Shown in pieces: positions 8,703 through 56,346 of a stretch of DNA of 64,000 bases; the first letter of the stretch is position 1, and every line of letters begins with the position of its first letter. Below the pieces are notes generated by a model, which did no database searches, was not told the origin of the DNA, and saw only the letters and a list, made by a program, of their open reading frames with translations. The DNA lies in contig QALW01000021.1 in assembly GCA_003150515.1 (NCBI GenBank), forward strand, positions 163,644-227,643, read 5' to 3'. The stretch comes from Selenomonadales bacterium (GTDB lineage Bacteria > Bacillota > Clostridia > Christensenellales > QALW01). Made by a program: the position numbers and the translations under genes.

Positions 8703-10112
8703 TTGGCGCCTGTTAAAAAGGCTAAAAGAAAATATGAGATAGACATGTGCAGCGGCCCTATATTTAAAAAGGTCGTGCTTTTTGCTTTTCCTCTAATGAT
8801 TTCAGGCATACTGCAGCTTTTATATAACGCGGCCGATATAATAGTCGTAGGGCAGTTTGCCGGCAGCGACGCAATGGCGGCCGTGGGCTCCACTTCCTCT
8901 CTGATTAATCTGCTTACCAACGTTTTTATCGGACTTTCCATGGGAGTAAGCGTGCTGATTTCCAAATTCTACGGAGCCGGGCAGCAAAAGGATATTTTTG
9001 AAACGGTGCATACGGCGATTGGGCTCAGTCTTATATGCGGAGTGCTCATAGGCGCGCTGGGATTTATTTTCGCCGGAGACATGCTGGAGCTTATGGATTC
9101 GCCTGATAACGTGCTGGATAAAGCCACTCTCTATATGCAGATATATTTTCTGGGCATGCCCGCCTTTATGCTTTATAATTTTGGCAGCGCCGCCCTGAGA
9201 GCCGTGGGAGACACCCGCAGGCCCCTGTATTATCTCACCATTGCCGGAATTGTTAACATTCTCCTGAATCTGCTGTTTGTAATAGTATTCAATATGAGCG
9301 TAATGGGAGTGGCCATCGCGACGGTCGTCTCCCAGATTATTTCCGCGTTTCTTATAATCTGGTGCCTGATTAAAACGGACGGAGTGTGCCGGCTCAGCCT
9401 CAAGGAAATCAAAATATATCCCCGAAAATTGGGCTCCATTCTGAGAATAGGCCTGCCCGCAGGTATTCAGGGCTCTCTTTTTTCCATATCCAACGTGCTG
9501 ATTCAATCTTCTGTCAATTCGTTTAATTCCATAGCTATGGCGGGCAATACCGCCGCGGCCAGTCTGGAAGGCTTCGTTTACACCTCCATGAACGCTATGT
9601 CCCAGGCTTCCCTTTCTTTTACCAGCCAAAATTTCGGAGCCGGACAGATGAAGCGAATTAAGAGAATTGCCGGAATATGTCTGCTCTCGGTTACCGTCCT
9701 GGGGCTGTCCCTGGGCATGCTTATAACTCTGCTTGGGCATCCCTTAAGCAGAATATATTCGCCCGACCCGGCCGTTATAGAGGTTAGCATATCCCGTCTG
9801 AGCATTATATGCACCACCTATTTCCTCTGCGGAATTATGGAAGTATTCGTCGGGCTGCTGCGCGGCATGGGGCAATCCCTGCTGCCCACGTCCGTCTCTC
9901 TGCTGGGCGCCTGCGTGTTCCGCATAATATGGATATACACCGTTTTTGCCGCGCATCACACTCTGACGGTGTTATACATTTCCTATCCCGTCTCCTGGCT
10001 GCTGACCTCGTTAATTCATTTTATATGCTTCCTCTTCGTTTATAACTACAACAAGCGAAAGCTTAATAGAATAAAAGAGGAAACCGCGCCCGCCTTGGAC
10101 GCGCCGGCATAG
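8703..10112 (+). CDS. MATE family efflux transporter
   Basis: 469 aa with 12 predicted TM segments and a MATE N-terminus (FKKVVLFAFPLMISGILQLLYNAADIIVVGQF). TTG start lies 8 nt after AGGAGG. Confidence 0.88.
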   Translation: MAPVKKAKRKYEIDMCSGPIFKKVVLFAFPLMISGILQLLYNAADIIVVGQFAGSDAMAAVGSTSSLINLLTNVFIGLSMGVSVLISKFYGAGQQKDIFETVHTAIGLSLICGVLIGALGFIFAGDMLELMDSPDNVLDKATLYMQIYFLGMPAFMLYNFGSAALRAVGDTRRPLYYLTIAGIVNILLNLLFVIVFNMSVMGVAIATVVSQIISAFLIIWCLIKTDGVCRLSLKEIKIYPRKLGSILRIGLPAGIQGSLFSISNVLIQSSVNSFNSIAMAGNTAAASLEGFVYTSMNAMSQASLSFTSQNFGAGQMKRIKRIAGICLLSVTVLGLSLGMLITLLGHPLSRIYSPDPAVIEVSISRLSIICTTYFLCGIMEVFVGLLRGMGQSLLPTSVSLLGACVFRIIWIYTVFAAHHTLTVLYISYPVSWLLTSLIHFICFLFVYNYNKRKLNRIKEETAPALDAPA

Positions 10113-10198
10113 CTTCGCGCGCGCATAATTTCCAAGAGGAACCAATTTAAAACAAAAAGAGAGCGTCTCGGGCTCTCCGTTCAAACAAATTTCAATTT

Positions 10199-10227
10199 GC
10201 CGCCTGCAAAAGCAGGCGGCTTTATTT
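10199..10227. terminator. Bidirectional hairpin terminator between convergent MATE and hemW genes
   Basis: gccgcctgc (10199-10207), loop aaaa, gcaggcggc (10212-10220), then tttattt. Confidence 0.7.
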
Positions 10228-10228
10228 A

Positions 10229-14958: not shown

Positions 14959-15115
14959 AAAACATCCAGGGCGCATATAAAGGGGCGGGGCGGCTCGCGG
15001 CCCGGCCTGCGGCCGGGACAGGGGCGTTTTTGCAAAGCAAAAACCGCCCCTGCTTTGGCGCTAGGCACCAAAGCCGCGAGCCGCCCCGCCCCTTTATATG
15101 CACCCTGGATGTTTT
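14959..15115. repeat. GC-rich four-way-junction palindrome (hairpin cluster H1)
   Basis: A 43-bp outer stem (14959-15001 with 15073-15115, one mismatch) encloses three hairpins at 15002-15016, 15019-15052 and 15053-15073. Confidence 0.9.
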
Positions 15116-18362: not shown

Positions 18363-19331
18363 ATGAATCTGGAAAACTACGCTCCCCAAAAGCCATTTAG
18401 CCAAAAACATCTGCTGCGCCTGCAGGATTATACTAAAGACGAAATATTGCAGGTGCTCTCTCTTGCCCTGGATTTAAAGGCCAGGCAGAAGGCCCATATC
18501 CCCCATAAATTGCTTGAGGGCAAAACGCTGGCTATGATATTTACTAAATCCTCCACCCGCACGCGCGTTTCCTTTGAAACGGGAATGCAGCAGCTTGGCG
18601 GGCACGCCATGTTTTTAAGCGGCAATGATATACAGCTTGGCCGCGGCGAGCCTATATCGGATACGGCCAGAGTTATGTCCCGCATGGTGGACGGCATAAT
18701 GATCCGCACCTTTAAGCAGTCGGACGTGGAGGAACTGGCCAAATACGGCTCGGTGCCGGTCATCAACGGCTTGACCGACCTGCTGCACCCATGCCAGGTT
18801 CTGGCCGATCTGCTGACAATATACGAACACAAAAAAGCTCTGAAAGGGCTTAAATTGGCTTATCTCGGAGACGGCAACAATATGGCGCATTCTCTGCTTA
18901 TAGGATGCTCCAAGGTTGGAATGGACGTAGCCGTCGGCTGCCCCGAAGGATATATGCCCGAGGAAGAAATCGTCCGCCAGGCGCAGGCAAACGCTCAGGC
19001 GGAAGGCTCCAAGGTATTAATTACATCCAGCCCCCAGGAAGCAGTGGAACAGGCCGACGTAGTTTACGCCGACGTATGGGCCAGCATGGGCCAGGAAGCC
19101 GAGCAGAAAAAGCGTGAAAAAATATTCCCGCCCTACCAGGTAAATAAAGCGCTTTTTTCTCTGGCTAAGCCCGGCGCAATATTTTTGCATTGCCTGCCCG
19201 CTCACCGCGGCGAAGAGGTGACTTCTGACGTAATAGATTCAGACGCAAGCGTAATCTTCGACGAAGCGGAAAACCGCCTGCACGCGCAAAAAGCCGTAAT
19301 GGCCCTGCTTATGGGGGAGGCCTCCAAATAA
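18363..19331 (+). CDS. argF: Ornithine carbamoyltransferase
   Basis: Contains STRTRVSFE, HPCQ and HCLP motifs. ATG at 18363 lies 9 nt after AAAGGAG. The track's TTG at 18354 overlaps the RBS. Confidence 0.93.
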   Translation: MNLENYAPQKPFSQKHLLRLQDYTKDEILQVLSLALDLKARQKAHIPHKLLEGKTLAMIFTKSSTRTRVSFETGMQQLGGHAMFLSGNDIQLGRGEPISDTARVMSRMVDGIMIRTFKQSDVEELAKYGSVPVINGLTDLLHPCQVLADLLTIYEHKKALKGLKLAYLGDGNNMAHSLLIGCSKVGMDVAVGCPEGYMPEEEIVRQAQANAQAEGSKVLITSSPQEAVEQADVVYADVWASMGQEAEQKKREKIFPPYQVNKALFSLAKPGAIFLHCLPAHRGEEVTSDVIDSDASVIFDEAENRLHAQKAVMALLMGEASK

Positions 19332-19843: not shown

Positions 19844-19920
19844 AAGCTCCTTTTTGGGCGTTTTAAAAGTCTTGCGCGAACAATAAGATTATGCTATCAT
19901 AAATTGCCGGATGATATGCA

Positions 19921-20006
19921 GGGGTATTTCAAGACAACGCAACAAAGCGGACGCGCGGGCATTCTTCGCAAAAACGCATTGTACTTTAATTGTATTCTCT
20001 AAAGCT
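19921..20006. repeat. MITE-like repeat family, copy A (single conserved arm; possible degenerate partner at 19876-19920)
   Basis: The reverse complement, TTAGAGAATACAATTAAAGTACAATGCGTTTTTGCGAAGAATGCCCGCGCGTCCGCTTTGTTGCGTTGTCTTGAAATACCCC, aligns position by position with 27787-27871, with most positions matching. Confidence 0.7.
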
Positions 20007-24583: not shown

Positions 24584-24743
24584 AAAAGGCCGTGATAAGG
24601 GGGGCGTTAAGCCCAATAGGGGGGCGGCGTTTGGCAGGCTGAACCGCCTGCCCGGCCGGAGCCTTCGGCTTCGGCCGGCGGCCCTTCGGGCCGCAAACGC
24701 CGCCCCCCTATTGGGCTTAACGCCCCCTTATCACGGCCTTTTA
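24584..24743. repeat. GC-rich four-way-junction palindrome (hairpin cluster H2), also a probable bidirectional terminator
   Basis: A ~50-bp outer stem (24584-24633 with 24694-24743, one G bulge) is flanked by an A-run and a T-run. It encloses three hairpins at 24634-24651, 24652-24678 (cUUCGg loop) and 24679-24693 (cUUCGg loop). Confidence 0.9.
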
Positions 24744-24868: not shown

Positions 24869-26167
24869 ATGATTTATAAAAAAGAATTAAAGCAGAAATA
24901 TGATGTAGACGTATTCATAGCCGGAGGAGGTCCTTCCGGCTTTGCCGCCGCAACAGCCTGCGCTCGTCAGGGAAAAAGCGTTTTCCTGGCCGAAAGCCGC
25001 GGCTCATTCGGCGGCGCGGGAACGGTAGGCATGGTGCCTGCGTTCATGTGCTTCGGAGACGGCGTCAACTTTCTTGCGGGCGGAATAGGCCGGGAAATCA
25101 GGGACGCGCTTTATTCCGACAGAAGCAATAACGCTTACGGCTATGCAATACACGCGGAAACCCTTAAACGCCTATATGACAATATGGCCGTAGAAGCCGG
25201 GTTCCATTTCTCCTTTTTCACAACCCTTTCGGATGTAATAGTCTCAAACGGCCGAATAGAATACGCCGTAATCTCCTCCAAAAGCGGCATGTATCTTATT
25301 AAGGCCAAGGTTTTTATAGACGCCACCGGAGACGGCGACCTCTGCGTATGGGCAGGCGCGCAATATGAATTAGGAGACCAAAACCAAAACACCATGCCCG
25401 CAACTTTATGCAGCCTTTGGGCTAATATAGATTTTTCGCGGAGAGACGCCCGGGATGACAGCAGGCTGGAGGAAGCTATAAACGATCATATTTTTACTCT
25501 GGAGGACAGACATCTGCCCGGCATTGCCGACGCAGACCCTCCGCGCGGAGTGGGCGGCGGCAATATAGGCCATTGTTTTAACGTCAATCCTATTGATGAA
25601 GCCTCCCTGACAAAAGCTATGCTTTGGGGACGCAAAACCCTGCCCGAATACGAGCGCTATTACAACAATTACCTCAAGGGCTTCGAACACGCGGGCATCT
25701 GTTCTACGGCAGACCTTTTAGGAGTAAGGGAATCCCGCCGCATAAAAGGCGATTATGAGCTTTGCGCTCAGGATTTTCTTGATAGAGCGGTATTTGAAGA
25801 TGAAATAGGGCGGTATTGTTATCCTGTGGACATACACATCATGGCTCCCGATAAAGAATCATATGAAGCGTTTAAGGCAGAATACGCGCGTTTCAGCTAT
25901 GCCCCGGGCGAATCCTACGGCATCCCCTACCGTTCTCTGCTTCCTGCCGGCCTTTCAAACGTGCTGGTAACAGGCAAATGCATAAGCACGGACCGCCAGA
26001 TGCAAGCCTCCATAAGAGTTATGCCCGGCTGCTACATAACCGGGCAGGCAGCCGGAATAGCGGCGGCGCTGGCCTGTTCCCGCGGCAGCGAAACCCGCGG
26101 CATAGATATAAAAGAGCTGCAGCGCCGCATAAAAAATATGGGCGGTTTTCTCCCCAACGTCCGATAA
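24869..26167 (+). CDS. FAD-dependent oxidoreductase (FAD_oxidored / GlcNAc-type flavoprotein family)
   Basis: Dinucleotide fold DVFIAGGGPSGFAAA. About 432 aa. ATG at 24869 lies 8 nt after AAAAGG. The alternative start is GTG at 24860 (track). Confidence 0.75.
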   Translation: MIYKKELKQKYDVDVFIAGGGPSGFAAATACARQGKSVFLAESRGSFGGAGTVGMVPAFMCFGDGVNFLAGGIGREIRDALYSDRSNNAYGYAIHAETLKRLYDNMAVEAGFHFSFFTTLSDVIVSNGRIEYAVISSKSGMYLIKAKVFIDATGDGDLCVWAGAQYELGDQNQNTMPATLCSLWANIDFSRRDARDDSRLEEAINDHIFTLEDRHLPGIADADPPRGVGGGNIGHCFNVNPIDEASLTKAMLWGRKTLPEYERYYNNYLKGFEHAGICSTADLLGVRESRRIKGDYELCAQDFLDRAVFEDEIGRYCYPVDIHIMAPDKESYEAFKAEYARFSYAPGESYGIPYRSLLPAGLSNVLVTGKCISTDRQMQASIRVMPGCYITGQAAGIAAALACSRGSETRGIDIKELQRRIKNMGGFLPNVR

Positions 26168-26324
26168 GACAACTCAATCAGAATACAATGCTATGCAAAG
26201 GAAGAAATGATCCGTTTTACTGCGCCCTCCTCTTTCAAATATCTTAAATATTTTTAAGAGCTTGCATTAAAACGGACGCGTCTCTTCCGCAAAAAACATT
26301 GTATTCTGATTGATTTATCTAAGC
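26165..26324. repeat. MITE-like repeat family, copy B (complete, compact)
   Basis: The terminal inverted repeat caatcagaatacaatg (26178-26193) is the exact complement of cattgtattctgattg (26297-26312). The arms align with the two arms of copy C in the opposite orientation. The first bases, TAAGAC, include the stop codon of the upstream CDS. Confidence 0.8.
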
Positions 26325-26333
26325 ATTCAAAGC

Positions 26334-27104
26334 TCAGCTCATATAAAGCTCCGCAGAAATGCGCAGCCTGCCCTTTTTGCTCTGGCCCTGAACACCGTTA
26401 TATATGAATCTGCCTCTTCCCCTTACGGAGATTAAATCCCCCGCCTTAATAAGAACAGCCGCGTCATAGCTCGTTCTATGATTAATCTGCACCAAACCGG
26501 CTTTTATTAATTGAGCGGTATTGCCGCGCGAAAGATTATATACGGCCGAAACAACGCCGTCCAAACGCTCCGAAGCAGCCGTGCAGACCATTCTTTCGGT
26601 TTTAGGCCTAAGCCCGTCTAACGCCTCAGCGACAGAACAATCCAGCAATTCGCATTTCACAGGAGTATTTTTGACTTTGTTAAGATTATCCGCCGCAAAG
26701 GCTGCTATACTCTCCTTTAAAAACATATAAGCGGAATTGCCGTTAACAAAAATATCTCCTACTACCTGCCTTTTAACCCCTAAATTCATAACCGCGCCTA
26801 AAAAATCCCTATGTCCGAGCTCCTGAGCAAATTTCTCCGCCGCCGGACGCACTCGCATCAGCGTTATAGGAAATTCAGGCTGGTATCCCATTATTTCAGG
26901 AGTACCGAAGCATATAAGCTTCCTTTCGCAATATTCCAGGCCGCCCCAAAGCATATGGGGCGTTTTTCTTATAACGGGCAGATCTAAAGCTGCACGCGCC
27001 TGCTCGGGCGAAAGAAAATCCGAAAAGACATATATTCCCCGCCCCTCCCATTTCTCCGCCAAATCTTCCAGCCGGGAAAACAATATTTCTTCTTTATCGT
27101 CCAT
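26334..27104 (-). CDS. ylmH: YlmH-like RNA-binding S4-domain protein
   Basis: About 256 aa. The C-terminal S4-like segment (RLDGVVSAVYNLSRGNTAQLIKAGLVQINH) and the overall length match the YlmH/Sll1252 family. ATG at 27104 overlaps the tmk 3' end. The track start is 27119. Confidence 0.65.
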   Translation of the reverse strand: MDDKEEILFSRLEDLAEKWEGRGIYVFSDFLSPEQARAALDLPVIRKTPHMLWGGLEYCERKLICFGTPEIMGYQPEFPITLMRVRPAAEKFAQELGHRDFLGAVMNLGVKRQVVGDIFVNGNSAYMFLKESIAAFAADNLNKVKNTPVKCELLDCSVAEALDGLRPKTERMVCTAASERLDGVVSAVYNLSRGNTAQLIKAGLVQINHRTSYDAAVLIKAGDLISVRGRGRFIYNGVQGQSKKGRLRISAELYMS

Positions 27105-27735
27105 GGCCCCGCCCTTCACGCAATTTCTCCTTCACTATCTGATACACCGTTTCGGAAGTCTGCTGCTTTGTACAGCCCGCGACGTCCAGCATAACAAAAT
27201 TATCGTTCTGCCCAGCCATTTCTTCAAAGCCGCGGTATACTTCCTGATGAAAGGCCATGCCCTGCATTTCCATGCGGTCCTCCTCGTCCATGCCTCCCTT
27301 GCGTTCAAAGGAAAGGCCCGGTTCAATATGCAGAAAGATGGTCAAATCCGGATGACAGCCCTGAACCGCTATTTCATTAAGGCTCTGAACAAGCCCTATA
27401 TTCAGCCCGCGCGCATAGCCCTGATAAGCTATGGTAGAATGGGTAAAGCGGTCGCATATAACTATTTTCCCCTTTTTCAGGGCAGGGGAAATAATTTCAT
27501 TCACATGCTGAGCGCGGGCTCCCTCAAAGAGCATAAGCTCCGCCAAAGGAGAAATCTCGCTTCTGCCCTCCAGAAGCAATTTGCGCACCTTCTCGGCCAG
27601 CTCGCAGCCGCCCGGCTCTCTTGTGAGCAATACGTCCAGGCCGTCCTGCCGCAGACGCTCGCAGAGCATTTTTATCTGCGTGCTCTTGCCGCTGCCCTCC
27701 GTTCCCTCAAAAGTTATAAAAAAGCCTCTGTTCAT
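27094..27735 (-). CDS. tmk: Thymidylate (dTMP) kinase
   Basis: P-loop FITFEGTEGSGKST and the TREPGG motif. ATG at 27735. The track's GTG is at 27744. Confidence 0.93.
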   Translation of the reverse strand: MNRGFFITFEGTEGSGKSTQIKMLCERLRQDGLDVLLTREPGGCELAEKVRKLLLEGRSEISPLAELMLFEGARAQHVNEIISPALKKGKIVICDRFTHSTIAYQGYARGLNIGLVQSLNEIAVQGCHPDLTIFLHIEPGLSFERKGGMDEEDRMEMQGMAFHQEVYRGFEEMAGQNDNFVMLDVAGCTKQQTSETVYQIVKEKLREGRGHGR

Positions 27736-27786
27736 CCCATACACACCCTTAATTTTATCATTAGCTAAAATAATTATATTACTTGA

Positions 27787-28068
27787 TTAGACAATATAAT
27801 CAGAGTAAAATGCGTTTTTGCTCAGAGCGCCCGCTGCGTCCTCTTTGCTGCGCGGTCTTAAAATACTCCGGTATGTCTTCGACCGCGCGCCCCGCGGCCT
27901 TTCATTGGGCGCTTTGAGCAAAAATCTTTGACCGCAGAGAAAAGGAGATTTTTTGTTTTGCAAGGCGGCAGGACGCAGAAATATTGGAATATTTCAAGGA
28001 CGACAACGCGGCAAAACGGAAAATCTCCTCCTATGCGGCGCATTGTACTTTGATTGTATTGTCTAAGC
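27787..28068. repeat. MITE-like repeat family, copy C (long form) between the decarboxylase gene and tmk
   Basis: The 28-nt terminal inverted repeats ttagacaatataatcagagtaaaatgcg (27787-27814) and cgcattgtactttgattgtattgtctaa (28039-28066) differ at 3 of 28 positions. A further partial direct copy of the left end lies at 28069-28094. Confidence 0.8.
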
Positions 28069-28093
28069 AATATAATCAGAGCAAAACATCCGC

Positions 28094-29440
28094 CTATTCT
28101 TCCGAACATACCAGCACACGCCCTTTGCGCACGCCAAAAAGCTCCCGTCCGCTTTTTGCGGCGCTTAATATATAGTCTATCATATCTCCGTCTATGCGCT
28201 CGCCTCTATCGGCTAACGGCACTCCCGGAGGATATGTCCCAAAAGCCTGCGCGCAGATTTTTCCCGGCGATTCTTCAAGCGGAACATATATATGCCGCCT
28301 ATTAAAAGCCGCCTGCCGCGGAGATATAACTCTCTCGGGCAGTTTATCGGGCATATCCGGAAAAGGAACAAACGGCTCGGGCTTTAAGGCCAAAAGCGCG
28401 TTATATAAGCGTTCCAGCTTTTCAGGCGTATCTTTATGGGTTAATATAAAAATTACCTGATATTCGTCCGCGCATTCGGGATAAATTCCCATATTTTCAA
28501 GCTGCTTGGCCCCGTTAAGCCCGCTGAGAGCAGGGGCGGTTATTACGCACAGCCGGGTTATATCCTGCCTATCCCCCTCATTCAGGCGAAACCCGGCTTC
28601 CTTAAGCCCAAAACGCAGGCTTTGAATACGGCTTAGCACAGCCTCCCTATCGCATCCTTCCAATTCCGCGCGCGCTAAATCCATGCTGGCCATTATCAGA
28701 TAGCTTGGGCTGGAAGTGCCCAGCGCGGGCAAAAACGCCCAAAGCTCGTTTTCAAAGCGATTGTCCTTTATATTAAGCAGAGCCGCCTGAGTCAGCGCGC
28801 CCATGGTCTTATGCATGGACTGCACCCACATATCCGCTTCCGCTTGGGCCGCGCCTTCAAAGCCGTAATAGGGAAAATGCGCTCCGTGCGCTTCGTCCAC
28901 AAGCAAAAGCATGCCCTTTTCCCTCGCCAGCGCGCCGATTTCTTTCAGCGGCGCGCTATTGCCGCAATAATCGGGAGAAGTTATAAAAATTCCTTTAGCC
29001 TCCGGATGCTCCAAAACGCATTGCCTAACCTCTTCAAAAACAGGTTGAGCCAGCCGCCCCTCTTTTATGCGGGGAGAAATATATATAGGCTCCGCGCCCG
29101 AAAGAACCAGGCCGTCTCCGGCGCTTCTATGGGAATTCCGGCTTAAAATGAGCTTTTCGCCCTCTCTCAGCGCCGCGCACAGCATAGCCTTGACTCCCTC
29201 GCTGGAGCCGCCTGTAAGCATAAAGCTTTTATAGGCCCCCGCAGCCTGCGCGATAAGCTCCTGAGCCTGCTTAATCGCTCCCTGAGGCGCATAAAGATTA
29301 TCGCTGAAAGAAAGCTCGGTTATATCGTACTGCTCGCAGCCCAAACCGCCCATGCCTTTATGGCCGGGCATATGAAAGCGCGCGCAGTCCGCTCCGGCAT
29401 ATTTTTTCAGCATTTCATATAAAGGAGCATTCGTTTTCAT
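28094..29440 (-). CDS. Orn/Lys/Arg decarboxylase-family PLP enzyme (YaaO-like)
   Basis: 448 aa. Contains FHMPGHKG and the PLP-lysine context SMHKTMGALTQ. It shows the same decarboxylase-then-tmk linkage as the Bacillus yaaO-tmk locus. Confidence 0.85.
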   Translation of the reverse strand: MKTNAPLYEMLKKYAGADCARFHMPGHKGMGGLGCEQYDITELSFSDNLYAPQGAIKQAQELIAQAAGAYKSFMLTGGSSEGVKAMLCAALREGEKLILSRNSHRSAGDGLVLSGAEPIYISPRIKEGRLAQPVFEEVRQCVLEHPEAKGIFITSPDYCGNSAPLKEIGALAREKGMLLLVDEAHGAHFPYYGFEGAAQAEADMWVQSMHKTMGALTQAALLNIKDNRFENELWAFLPALGTSSPSYLIMASMDLARAELEGCDREAVLSRIQSLRFGLKEAGFRLNEGDRQDITRLCVITAPALSGLNGAKQLENMGIYPECADEYQVIFILTHKDTPEKLERLYNALLALKPEPFVPFPDMPDKLPERVISPRQAAFNRRHIYVPLEESPGKICAQAFGTYPPGVPLADRGERIDGDMIDYILSAAKSGRELFGVRKGRVLVCSEE

Positions 29441-35543: not shown

Positions 35544-35801
35544 TTTCTCCATTTATACAATGCAAGCAGAGCGCAGAATCTTTGCCAAAAGGCTGCGCCC
35601 TTTTTGCCCCGCGGGCATGAAAATTTCCAGCTCCGCTTTTATTTTCGCGGCTTTAAGCTGCCCTTAAACTCCTCCGTGCAAAAAGCCGCATAAAAGAATT
35701 CCATCTCCTTTTTATTAAAAAATCACTTCTACAACATCCTGCGGGAGCATATTGTATTTCAGGAGGACAAACCCTCCCCATTAATAACGAGGACTGATAT
35801 C

Positions 35802-40785: not shown

Positions 40786-41061
40786 GGATGGCGAAATGGC
40801 GCCCAGACCGGCATAAATGCCGGCCTGGGCGCCGGGGGCGCGCCGTTGGGCAAGCCTTAAGGCTTGCCCTTGGCCGAGCATAGCTCGGCCCGAGCGGCCT
40901 ACGGCCGCTCAACGGCGCGCCCCCGGCGGCCCCCATTCAAGCGCCCTATAGGGCGCTTGAATGGGGGCCGCAAAAGAGCGTGCAAAGAAAGCAAGCTTTC
41001 TTTGCACGCTCTTTTGCGGGCAAGGCCTGCTTTGCAGGCCTTGCCCGCCATTTCGCCATCC
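40786..41061. repeat. GC-rich nested hairpin array (cluster H3a), 276 nt
   Basis: A closing stem (40786-40799 with 41048-41061) encloses these hairpins:
- 40800-40831
- a four-way junction at 40832-40927, with arms at 40848-40869, 40872-40890 and 40892-40910
- 40927-40970
- 40971-41016
- 41017-41047
The hairpins are tiled with essentially no unpaired spacer. Confidence 0.9.
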
Positions 41062-41079
41062 TAGCCCCTTGCTCTAAAT

Positions 41080-41190
41080 TTCAAAGCCGGCGCAGCATGC
41101 GGCGTTTGGCAGGCTAATAGCCTGCCCGGCCGAACTTTGTTCGGCCCGCGGCCGCAGGCCGCAAACGCCGCATGCTGCGCCGGCTTTGAA
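41080..41190. repeat. GC-rich four-way-junction palindrome (cluster H3b), same core as H2
   Basis: A 29-bp outer stem (41080-41108 with 41162-41190) closes three hairpins at 41109-41125, 41128-41146 and 41148-41162. It shares GCGGCGTTTGGCAGGCT, GCCTGCCCGGCCG and GGCCGCAAACGCCGC with 24625-24705. Confidence 0.9.
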
Positions 41191-50473: not shown

Positions 50474-50658
50474 CTGAGGCCCGCAAATAAATAAGGCGCT
50501 CAAGCGCCTTATTTATTTGCGGGCCTCAGCCTCCTGGCAGGGGTATGCCAATAGTCTTAAAGCGCGGGCGGCTCGCGCTTTAAGACTATTGGCATACCCC
50601 TGCCAGGAGGAACAAATGACGGCCTATGTCCGGCAACGCCGGACATAGGCCGTCATTT
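50474..50658. repeat. Three tandem perfect long hairpins (cluster H4)
   Basis: Three hairpins: 26-bp stem at 50474-50529 (loop tcaa), 37-bp stem at 50530-50610 (loop ggcggct) and 21-bp stem at 50614-50658 (loop aac). All stems are perfect. Confidence 0.9.
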
Positions 50659-52136: not shown

Positions 52137-52309
52137 GGCCCTGGGCGCGTAAACGCGCCCAGGGCCAAAGTCTCAATATAGCCCGGAAAGCTTTGCTTTC
52201 CGGGCTATATTGAGACTTTGCGCCCGGCCTAAAGGCCGGGCGCAGCCCTTTAAATAAACGGCCGATGGGCTCAAGATATCAAAAATGATATCTTGAGCCC
52301 ATCGGCCGT
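52137..52309. repeat. Four tandem perfect hairpins (cluster H5)
   Basis: Four perfect hairpins at 52137-52166 (13 bp, taaa), 52167-52219 (25 bp, ttt), 52220-52243 (10 bp, taaa) and 52258-52309 (24 bp, aaaa). Confidence 0.9.
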
Positions 52310-52347
52310 AATTTAAAAATAACTCAATTAAATCAGTTAAAAATAAA

Positions 52348-56205: not shown

Positions 56206-56305
56206 GTTAGGCGATGCAAACAGGATACAATGCGTTTTGCAGGAAAAGCCCGCCGAGGGGAAAATCCTTCCACGCCCGGCGCATTATATCCTGATCCTAC
56301 CGCCT
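56206..56305. repeat. MITE-like repeat family, copy D (short form) between feoB and the Cys-rich ORF
   Basis: The left end ttaggcgatgcaaacaggatacaatgcgttttgc resembles the family end. The right end gcgcattatatcctgatcctaccgcct is its imperfect complement. It is followed by gacaatataagcaaag, a partial direct copy of the family terminus. Confidence 0.6.
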
Positions 56306-56346
56306 GGACAATATAAGCAAAGAGGCGTTAAATATCCGCTCCTGAT

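Follow-up and report, generated by a model that had tools for sequence, protein, structure and literature searches.

What is the sequence that fills the gap between a decarboxylase gene and tmk in the 64,000-nt stretch of DNA analyzed here (hereafter, the window), how did it come to be there, and is it anything more than a passenger? We find it to be a non-coding miniature transposon (MITE) that belongs to a TA-inserting family scattered in uncultured gut Clostridia; the family is apparently undescribed, while the kind of mobile DNA it represents is an ordinary one. The explanation as a whole, i.e., a non-autonomous family that inserts at TA and is moved by a DDE transposase acting in trans, probably an enzyme of the IS630/Tc1-mariner type, we hold to be highly probable.

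An earlier, sequence-only reading of this DNA had described terminal inverted repeats (TIRs) of 28 nt, and 27787-27814 (TTAGACAATATAATCAGAGTAAAATGCG) does match the reverse complement of 28039-28066 (TTAGACAATACAATCAAAGTACAATGCG) with 3 of the 28 positions mismatched; the outermost T and A of these 28-mers, however, belong to the flank, the element proper being 27790-28063 and the family TIR being 25 nt long (consensus GACAATACAATCARAGTACAATGCG), with a TA on either side of the element (Table 1). The family terminus string following the TA reads GACAATACAATCARAGTACAATG, and only unrelated primers matched the terminus string in the open literature. Compared with the family profile (nhmmer), the window copy is full-length (E 3e-84, model positions 1-280), and it shows 83.7% identity to the consensus of 47 copies. 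The space between the TIRs, said to hold no credible ORF, indeed offers in its 224 nt only short, non-conserved ORFs of 41-83 aa, and the length differences among copies (253 to 292 nt) are not multiples of three. This non-coding core of ~225 nt is instead a near-palindrome that folds into two long hairpins, of which hairpin B is a distant inverted homologue of hairpin A (27783-28070 aligns with its reverse complement at 58% over 306 nt). In hairpin A, the internal loop is conserved (consensus GTCCGCTTTG) and the apex forms an ATAC....GTAT mini-hairpin; pairing within this hairpin (helices 3-6) is retained in 81-95% of cells over the 47 copies, the TIR helices being paired in 93%; the motif AAAAATCTCCGACCGCAGAG beside the inter-hairpin linker is near-invariant across the family. 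Past the right end, the partial copy of the left terminus noticed earlier (the 14-nt caatataatcagag) proved to be part of a longer remnant, which stops 6 nt short of the decarboxylase stop codon. As for the host, the exact tmk protein is recorded in 599 blocks of an assembly collection, the contigs shown being metagenome assemblies and one NCBI MAG.

Table 1. Coordinates of the element, its parts, its neighbors, and the further copies within the window.
Feature	Position	Strand	Details
Full-length MITE copy, flanking TAs included	27788-28065	+	278 nt; A-half then B-half
Left TA, target-site duplication	27788-27789		Ends TA-GACAAT...ATTGTC-TA in nearly all copies
Left TIR, GACAATATAATCAGAGTAAAATGCG	27790-27814	+	TIR profile match, E 5e-8
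Hairpin A, internal, ~110 nt	27815-27924		MFE folds
Unpaired linker joining hairpins A and B	27925-27931		Predicted fold
Hairpin B, internal, ~107 nt	27932-28038		MFE folds; helices 7-12
Right TIR, reverse complement GACAATACAATCAAAGTACAATGCG	28039-28063	-	TIR profile match, E 3.5e-10
Right TA, target-site duplication, common to the element and the following remnant	28064-28065
Left-terminus remnant of a second, formerly abutting copy, AGCAATATAATCAGAGCAAAAC	28066-28087	+	28070-28083 identical to 27792-27805 (14/14)
Flanking gene, Orn/Lys/Arg-type decarboxylase (context only)	28094-29440	-	Pfam OKR_DC_1, E 5e-51
Flanking gene, thymidylate kinase, tmk (context only)	27094-27735	-	Pfam Thymidylate_kin, E 2e-47
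Half copy, TIR and 5' arm of hairpin A	19910-20001	-	nhmmer E 3e-18, model positions 1-94
Short two-armed copy, 157 nt	26165-26321	+	Between convergent genes
Diverged short copy, ~100 nt, both arms, downstream of feoB	56208-56307	+	Arm profile E 1.3e-4
Partial terminus GACAATATAAGCAAAGAGGCG, directly following the copy at 56208-56307 on its right	56308-56328	+	blastn 28018-28081 vs. 56259-56322
Candidate decayed copy (weak), upstream of spoIIIAA	35555-35692	+	nhmmer E 3e-6, model positions 2-151

Several copies had been seen in the 64 kb, and our census amounts to a full copy, a half copy, a pair of short copies, and two or three remnants. In blastn, 27787-27880 (left arm) aligns with 19910-20002 in reverse complement (79% over 94 nt, E 1.5e-16) and 27979-28064 (right arm) aligns with 26253-26167 (74% over 87 nt, E 6e-11), much as the two arm types had been paired before. 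The 28-nt TIR consensus with up to 3 mismatches has 3 matches in the window and a degenerate 26-nt TIR pattern has 5, vs. 0.00 expected for each of the two terminus patterns from 100 shuffles of the window. The half copy sits after a conserved promoter-like sequence upstream of a DUF1858 gene, at a site where a sister species (locus L031) has unrelated sequence; the 157-nt copy, the first TA of which falls within the TAA stop codon of a FAD-oxidoreductase gene, is missing in both sister-species loci available (L031 and L033).

Counting copies outside the window, as the sequence-only reading had proposed, turned up further ones in public genomes and metagenomes, and its notion of a dispersed non-autonomous element is borne out by more than 80 uniform ~280-nt copies from several gut Clostridia genomes and metagenomes; a high copy number in the window's own genome is an extrapolation from the 64 kb. 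More exactly, the public genome and metagenome scans gave 82 full-length profile matches (69 distinct sequences at about 45-55 distinct sites), all of them from gut Clostridia MAGs or gut metagenome contigs, with true matches in UMGS1037 (URIR01), Ca. Neochristensenella gallicola (CAJFSR01), and two Hadza gut MAGs, and with family matches in 109 metagenome stretches; plasmid, phage, and viral-contig collections (blastn/scan) held no family match. Copy sizes peak at 270-289 nt, a range into which the TIR spacing falls for 53 of 76 pairs, and size variants with unchanged termini (~77 nt, 150-178 nt, 226 nt, and 325-403 nt) are counted as deletion derivatives. Copies lie in every gene arrangement and in both orientations, one even within a gene. 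Related gut MAGs also contain a second MITE family with the termini TA-CCCTCAGTTTACAAG...CTTGTAAACTGAGGG-TA, which resembles the first in its size (266-280 nt), its TA flanks, its two-hairpin Y-shaped fold, and the common core islands TACGCCCGGTA, GCGTCC..GC, and AGAAAAAGAATTT, but differs in having unrelated terminal repeats and a consensus-to-consensus identity of only ~47%; no copy of it was found in the 64-kb window.

The family inserts at TA, duplicates it, and prefers the target T.G..TA..C.A. Essentially all sites are flanked by TA, and the palindromic consensus around this dinucleotide rests on 36 sites (G at -3 in 26 and C at +3 in 24; T at -5 in 22 and A at +5 in 20), with which the target of the window copy, TTGAT-TA-AGCAA, agrees. 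The target-site duplication, another feature whose examination had been suggested from the letters alone, could be read from a copy (L043, 9047-9322) that interrupts a GNAT acetyltransferase gene: once this copy is deleted with exactly one TA kept, an open frame of 219 aa results that is collinear with the undisrupted L011 homologue, and the frame is lost if no TA or both TAs are retained, so TA is the 2-bp target duplication. The family's mobility is also seen in a strain pair, where a copy present in L052 (3128-3404) is missing in L132 between flanks that are 99.0-99.9% identical, and L132 has 2 nt in its place; this one clean empty site reads CA instead of TA, which requires a T/C polymorphism at the target. 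The sister species, syntenic with the window, offered no clean empty site from which to read the duplication because their intergenic DNA is too diverged, but they contain zero copies in 20 kb, and their decarboxylase-tmk gap measures 62 and 23 nt (L031 and L033, respectively) vs. 358 nt in the window. The window copy would seem to have entered a short spacer between decarboxylase and tmk once the sister species had branched off, and it is presumably fixed in the species now, most likely as a neutral passenger. Five strains agree in every base of the 358-nt gap, but also in the surrounding 3.5 kb, so that strain SNPs are uninformative on constraint.

Two further peculiarities of placement relate to the ends themselves. 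The element's own end, TTGTC-TA, agrees with the target consensus, which explains the copies that abut each other with a single TA in common (...ATTGTC-TA-GACAAT...), an arrangement frequent in the family; the tandem or nested insertion suspected from the TIR remnant past the right end of the window copy is accounted for in the same way. As the first base of the element following the TA is G, a TAA/TAG stop codon that receives the insertion in its TA is regenerated as TAG, and this may be the reason for the precise location of several copies at stop codons.

Which enzyme moves these copies is a different matter. They would be mobilized in trans by a DDE transposase encoded elsewhere and binding the TIRs, most probably one of the IS630/Tc1-mariner type, the elements of which have TA as their nearly exclusive target and duplicate it (PMC2170065). 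The ~1.27 Mb of fetched loci and the window yielded neither a full-length IS related to the window element nor an autonomous copy (no TIR pair was spaced >403 nt, with pairs sought up to 5 kb), and no autonomous partner came from a generic inverted-repeat scan at 700-3000 nt spacing, from a viral-contig scan, or from plasmid and phage blastn. Pfam found no transposase (IS630-, IS30-, and IS5-types included) among the ORFs beside single arms, the IS630-type catalytic motif P.YSP.LNPIE is absent from the six-frame translations of the sampled DNA, window included, and 10 kb further along the host contig there is no transposase, only one weak remnant. That no IS630-type transposase or motif turned up in the sampled DNA would fit a MITE moved by some other enzyme, e.g., of the IS30-family or the IS5-family (IS427 or ISL2 groups), and so would the palindromic target consensus and the 2-bp spacer seen where copies were inserted beside existing ends. 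IS30-family elements make 2-3 bp duplications at palindromic hot-spot targets and aim at their own inverted repeats, a targeting that the palindromic target and end-adjacent insertion of our family resemble, and the IS427 or ISL2 groups of the IS5-family make 2-4 bp duplications. The duplications of IS30 and IS5, however, vary in sequence, whereas the near-universal TA flank of the family is the IS630/Tc1-mariner signature, and neither an IS30 nor an IS5 transposase turned up near any copy in the Pfam search; such an enzyme is, in our view, unlikely.

The other alternatives concern the fold rather than the ends. The sequence-only reading had left room for a structured repeat family, of which the structure stands, since the element folds, but not the contrast with a transposon, as its behavior is that of mobile DNA. 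Folding into the Y shape is strong for both strands (z = -8.2 for the - and -11.3 for the + strand), 88.7% of cells pair over the 47 copies vs. 35-49% in slid controls, and pairs changed on both sides number 28 vs. 17.4 in shuffles, an excess that subfamily relatedness alone can produce. Together with compensatory changes (e.g., columns 48/148, 49/147, and 179/266), invariant internal-loop residues (T57-59, C182, and G185), and a homologous core with the same fold in the family with unrelated termini, these figures could be taken to mean that the core is a domesticated or selected structured module (an RNase III/mRNA-stability site in operons, a platform for a host protein, or a transposition enhancer), for which transposition is only the means of spread. 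Against this, RNAalifold yields a weak consensus (-10 kcal/mol, 18 pairs), many copies are chimeric with mismatched variable stem segments, G-U (231) and A-C (187) stem mismatches are nearly equal so that neither strand is favored, the copies occur in all gene arrangements (10 in the same and 4 in the opposite orientation relative to neighboring genes, a difference that is not significant and depends on crude ORF calls, plus the copy inside a gene), and the sister species do without any; whichever function is chosen, we regard a selected module as decidedly unlikely. The core might, nevertheless, be under some selection beyond what a pure junk-DNA reading allows. A broader departure from the MITE explanation, namely that the core is such a module, whether a DNA or RNA platform for the transposase or a host protein or an intercistronic element for processing or stability, as its invariant loop residues and its presence in at least two families with unrelated termini would permit, or that the families are moved by a not-yet-recognized type of transposase, as the failure to find an IS630-like gene would permit, is likewise improbable. 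If the operon is transcribed through the gap, the element would place a large Y-shaped structure into the intercistronic RNA, and any effect of it on processing or stability is speculation. That the copies are small RNA genes or cis-regulatory RNAs and not mobile DNA at all is very improbable: the region is strongly folded, intergenic, and within an operon, and a sigma-70-like TTGATT-17-TAAAAT at 27783-27811 reads into the element, but insertion inside an ORF with TA duplication, presence/absence between strains, and the absent strand bias would all be unexpected for an RNA gene, and the whole window has 0 Rfam matches at gathering thresholds (with permissive settings, the best match in 27700-28150 is rli51 at 21.6 bits vs. 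a 48-bit cutoff, E 0.23). As a family feature, the said promoter was rejected because its -35 lies mostly in flanking DNA, and the TIR itself was rejected as a promoter (TAGACA...TACAAT), its spacer being only 12 nt; there is no terminator-like site on the operon strand within the element, and no tRNA in the 64-kb window. A repeated, mostly extragenic palindrome without its own transposase also calls to mind the REP/BIME palindromes that RAYTs (Y1 transposases) mobilize, or palindrome-associated elements derived from IS200/IS605. Those, however, are 20-40 nt units inserted 3' of a specific tetra-/pentanucleotide and are not known to have either TIRs or target duplications; the 25-nt TIRs of the present family and its proven 2-bp TA duplication make this origin extremely improbable.

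The MITE explanation adds an apparently undescribed family, along with its sister family, to uncultured gut Clostridia that have been little studied and are related to Christensenella-like lineages. Elements of this kind break metagenome assemblies, can inactivate genes (the acetyltransferase gene split by one copy being an example), and are mistakable for RNA genes or regulatory sites, and their strain-level polymorphisms are usable as markers; knowledge of how bacterial MITEs work per se is unchanged by these results.

Among known systems, RUP and Correia/NEMIS would differ from the window family in the hosts (Streptococcus and Neisseria, respectively) and the sizes (107-155 bp) described for them. 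No cognate transposase is known for Correia/NEMIS either, and its TIRs presumably bear no resemblance to those of the window family. Correia elements are, furthermore, 107-155 bp long, proteobacterial, and equipped with an IHF site and promoter elements, neither of which is evident in the copies described here. The likenesses of the Neisseria Correia/NEMIS elements to the window family lie in their TIRs of 24-26 bp, a terminal TA with target duplication, size variants from internal deletion, and stable stem-loops once transcribed (PMC2229807). With autonomous IS630/Tc1-mariner elements (e.g., ISY100 and IS630), the family shares the strict TA target, the 2-bp TA duplication, and the TIR-defined ends (PMC2170065), but those are ~1-1.3 kb long and encode a DDE transposase, whereas the window element is without an ORF. 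RUP, the IS630-Spn1-associated MITE of Streptococcus pneumoniae, is shorter (107 bp with ~9-bp TIRs vs. ~280 bp, 25-nt TIRs, and a two-hairpin core), and a known IS matching its TIRs is present in the same genome, while no cognate IS was found for the window family. TIRs, a terminal TA, and stable stem-loops are common to both RUP and Correia as bacterial MITEs, and RUP is, like the family described here, a non-coding, mostly intergenic, multi-copy Firmicute element with TIRs that inserts at TA and tends to do so beside or into other mobile copies (PMC2229807).

By every testable criterion, the family to which the element between the decarboxylase and tmk genes belongs is one of MITEs, as the sequence-only reading had proposed: terminal inverted repeats (TIRs), a TA duplication, polymorphism between strains and a dispersed family absent from Rfam were all found. 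The 28-nt TIRs which it had marked, 27787-27814 and 28039-28066, are inverted copies of one another with 3 mismatches, and the relationships it had noted for the two arms hold as well, the left ~94 nt matching the reverse complement of 19910-20002 (79%, E 1.5e-16) and the right ~87 nt matching 26253-26167 (74%, E 6e-11). An arm consensus matched the window three times at ≤3 mismatches, and a degenerate 26-nt version of it five times, with 0.00 matches expected in shuffles in either case. The full copy shows 83.7% identity to the family consensus, and its halves are distantly homologous to one another in inverted orientation; the copy folds into a Y shape both on the operon (-) strand (-130.6 kcal/mol, z -8.2 vs shuffles) and on the + strand (-141.7 kcal/mol, z -11.3 vs shuffles).

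Family copies (window census by profile searches), neighbouring genes and related features; L-numbers denote sampled genome and metagenome loci
Feature	Position	Strand	Remarks
Full MITE copy	27788-28065		profile search
TIRs of full copy	each end		25 nt each, enclosing both hairpins
Hairpin A	27815-27924
Linker between hairpins			7 nt
Hairpin B	27932-28038		right TIR next
Terminus remnant	28066-28087		abuts right end of full copy
Half copy	19910-20001
Short two-armed copy	26165-26321
Short two-armed copy	56208-56307
Terminus remnant	56308-56328		abuts right end of short copy
Decayed copy	35555-35692		candidate
Thymidylate kinase gene	27094-27735	-	neighbour
Orn/Lys/Arg-type decarboxylase gene	28094-29440	-	neighbour
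ORFs ending in terminal TAG	L114 984; L053 982; L102 7134; L098 7862; L023 1676; L016 2422; L059 945
ORF ending in element terminus	26165-26167		as TAA
Second-family copies	L024 746-1025, 2800-3063; L046 4000-4271; L073 8489-8754; L107 7770-8047; L118 5366-5641; L136 863-1142
G+C-rich inverted repeats	14959-15115; 24600-24727; 40827-41190; 50474-50610; 52159-52318		unrelated in sequence to MITE

That the family is mobile DNA is supported, first, by two sister species, with Tmk proteins 85% and 66% identical: both keep synteny over 20 kb, none of which contains a family copy in either of them, and their decarboxylase-tmk gaps measure 62 and 23 nt vs 358 nt in the window. Between contigs L052 and L132, which are 99.0-99.9% identical, a 276-nt copy in the former corresponds to two bases in the latter. 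In metagenome contig L043 (ODYI01001333.1), a copy at 9047-9322 interrupts a GNAT-type acetyltransferase gene, whose halves lie in different frames and whose intact homologue is found at L011 2105-2839. Deleting this copy with exactly one TA kept restores a 219-aa open frame reading ...GCVALPNFKSERLHQSLGF..., collinear with ...GGVTLPNRASEGLHESMGF... of the homologue, whereas the frame is lost with no TA or with two; the TA is, therefore, the 2-bp target-site duplication for which the sequence-only reading had suggested looking.

The target preference is itself palindromic, T.G..TA..C.A (36 distinct sites; G at -3 in 26, C at +3 in 24, T at -5 in 22 and A at +5 in 20), and is fitted both by the window site, TTGAT|TA|AGCAA, and by the element's own end, TTGTC|TA. 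The latter accounts for insertion beside existing copies, abutting ones having a single TA in common (...ATTGTC-TA-GACAAT...), and for the partial terminus outside the right end (28070-28083, identical to 27792-27805), from which tandem or nested insertion had been surmised. At least seven copies supply, with their terminal TAG, the stop codon of a neighbouring ORF, which suggests that insertion into a stop-codon TA regenerates a stop and would be tolerated.

The host bacterium is of the Clostridium class and forms spores; the assembly collection has its Tmk protein in 599 blocks, the contigs shown being metagenome assemblies and one NCBI MAG. When one genome per species was scanned with a degenerate terminus pattern, true members came from gut Clostridia MAGs only (nine matching stretches in UMGS1037, three in Ca. 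Neochristensenella gallicola, and members in two Hadza gut MAGs), the remaining matches being rejected as AT-rich chance ones, while a metagenome scan gave 109 stretches. A profile of seven full copies gave 82 full-length matches (69 distinct sequences); mean identity among copies is 80%, and TIR pairs are spaced 270-289 nt apart in 53/76 cases. Variants with unchanged termini include almost coreless ones of ~77 nt, ones with hairpin A alone (150-178 nt) or hairpin B alone, one form of 226 nt, and ones of 325-403 nt with internal duplications.

Such folding might point to an RNA gene, and pairing of the Y structure as defined here is kept in 88.7% of cells vs 35-49% in slid controls, double changes being somewhat in excess (28 pairs vs 17.4 in shuffles). 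The evidence, however, is against this: the RNAalifold consensus is weak (18 pairs, -10 kcal/mol), and the element has no match in Rfam. Many copies are chimeric, with variable stem segments mismatched to each other; G-U and A-C mismatches are nearly equal (231 vs 187), so neither strand is favoured; and copies lie in both orientations between convergent, divergent and tandem genes. The palindromy is, therefore, a DNA-level property of the family, which may be under selection (e.g., for transposition) or may go back to an inverted duplication.

TIRs, TA duplication, target preference, strain polymorphism and gene disruption are directly supported; the copies would be mobilised in trans by a DDE transposase, probably of the IS630/Tc1-mariner type. 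Elements of that type insert almost exclusively at TA, which they duplicate (PMC2170065), and RUP, a Firmicute MITE, has been attributed to an insertion sequence of this kind (PMC2229807). As no autonomous element with the same termini, nor any partner transposase, was found in the window and the sampled loci or in plasmid, phage and viral-contig collections, the transposase family is one that we infer, an IS30- or IS5-type enzyme being a minor alternative.

The window copy most likely does nothing useful. Inside it, the operon strand has no terminator-like site; just outside it, ahead of tmk, lies a TATAAT-like sequence, possibly a -10 element, which is conserved with the sister species. Elsewhere, a promoter-like sequence (TTGCGC/TTGCAC, 17 nt, TATCAT; window 19871-19905) upstream of a DUF1858 gene is conserved with sister species L031 (reverse complement of 19050-19300); the half copy lies just downstream and would, thus, fall in the gene's 5' leader.

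Several other features were also seen. The window holds other long, nearly perfect, G+C-rich intergenic inverted repeats (arms 25-43 nt, 88-100% complementary), of which that at 24600-24727 differs among strains L001-L005, both in sequence and in length. A same-species contig, L144, carries at ~716-2164 a ~1.45-kb insertion between 13-bp direct repeats CAAATTGCAATTT in the hemN-murJ gap (window ~10113-10228), with a 235-aa ORF lacking a Pfam match; in the window and L145 the site is empty, with one copy of the repeat. Metagenome contig L082 is bounded, at 1-47 and 2934-2980, by inverted copies of …AGATGTGTATAAGAGACAG, which we take to be a Nextera-type sequencing adapter; these ends are an assembly artefact, not biology.

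A second MITE family in the same MAGs, absent from the window, is 266-280 nt long and TA-flanked, with unrelated termini (TA|CCCTCAGTTTACAAG...CTTGTAAACTGAGGG) and a homologous core of identical two-hairpin Y fold type (core islands in common, ~47% consensus identity). A third, more diverged core relative without the canonical termini was seen at L016 5177-5437 and L095 5394-5654 (profile E 2e-13 and 6e-11, model positions 11-273). In Rfam and the open literature, no hit for the terminus string and no matching family came to light; so far as these sources go, the studied family is new within a known kind of mobile DNA, and its modest interest lies mainly in gut Clostridia annotation and in the shared structured core. 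It works like the RUP and Correia elements, but is longer (~280 nt vs 107-155 nt), has TIRs longer than those of RUP and contains a distinctive two-hairpin core.
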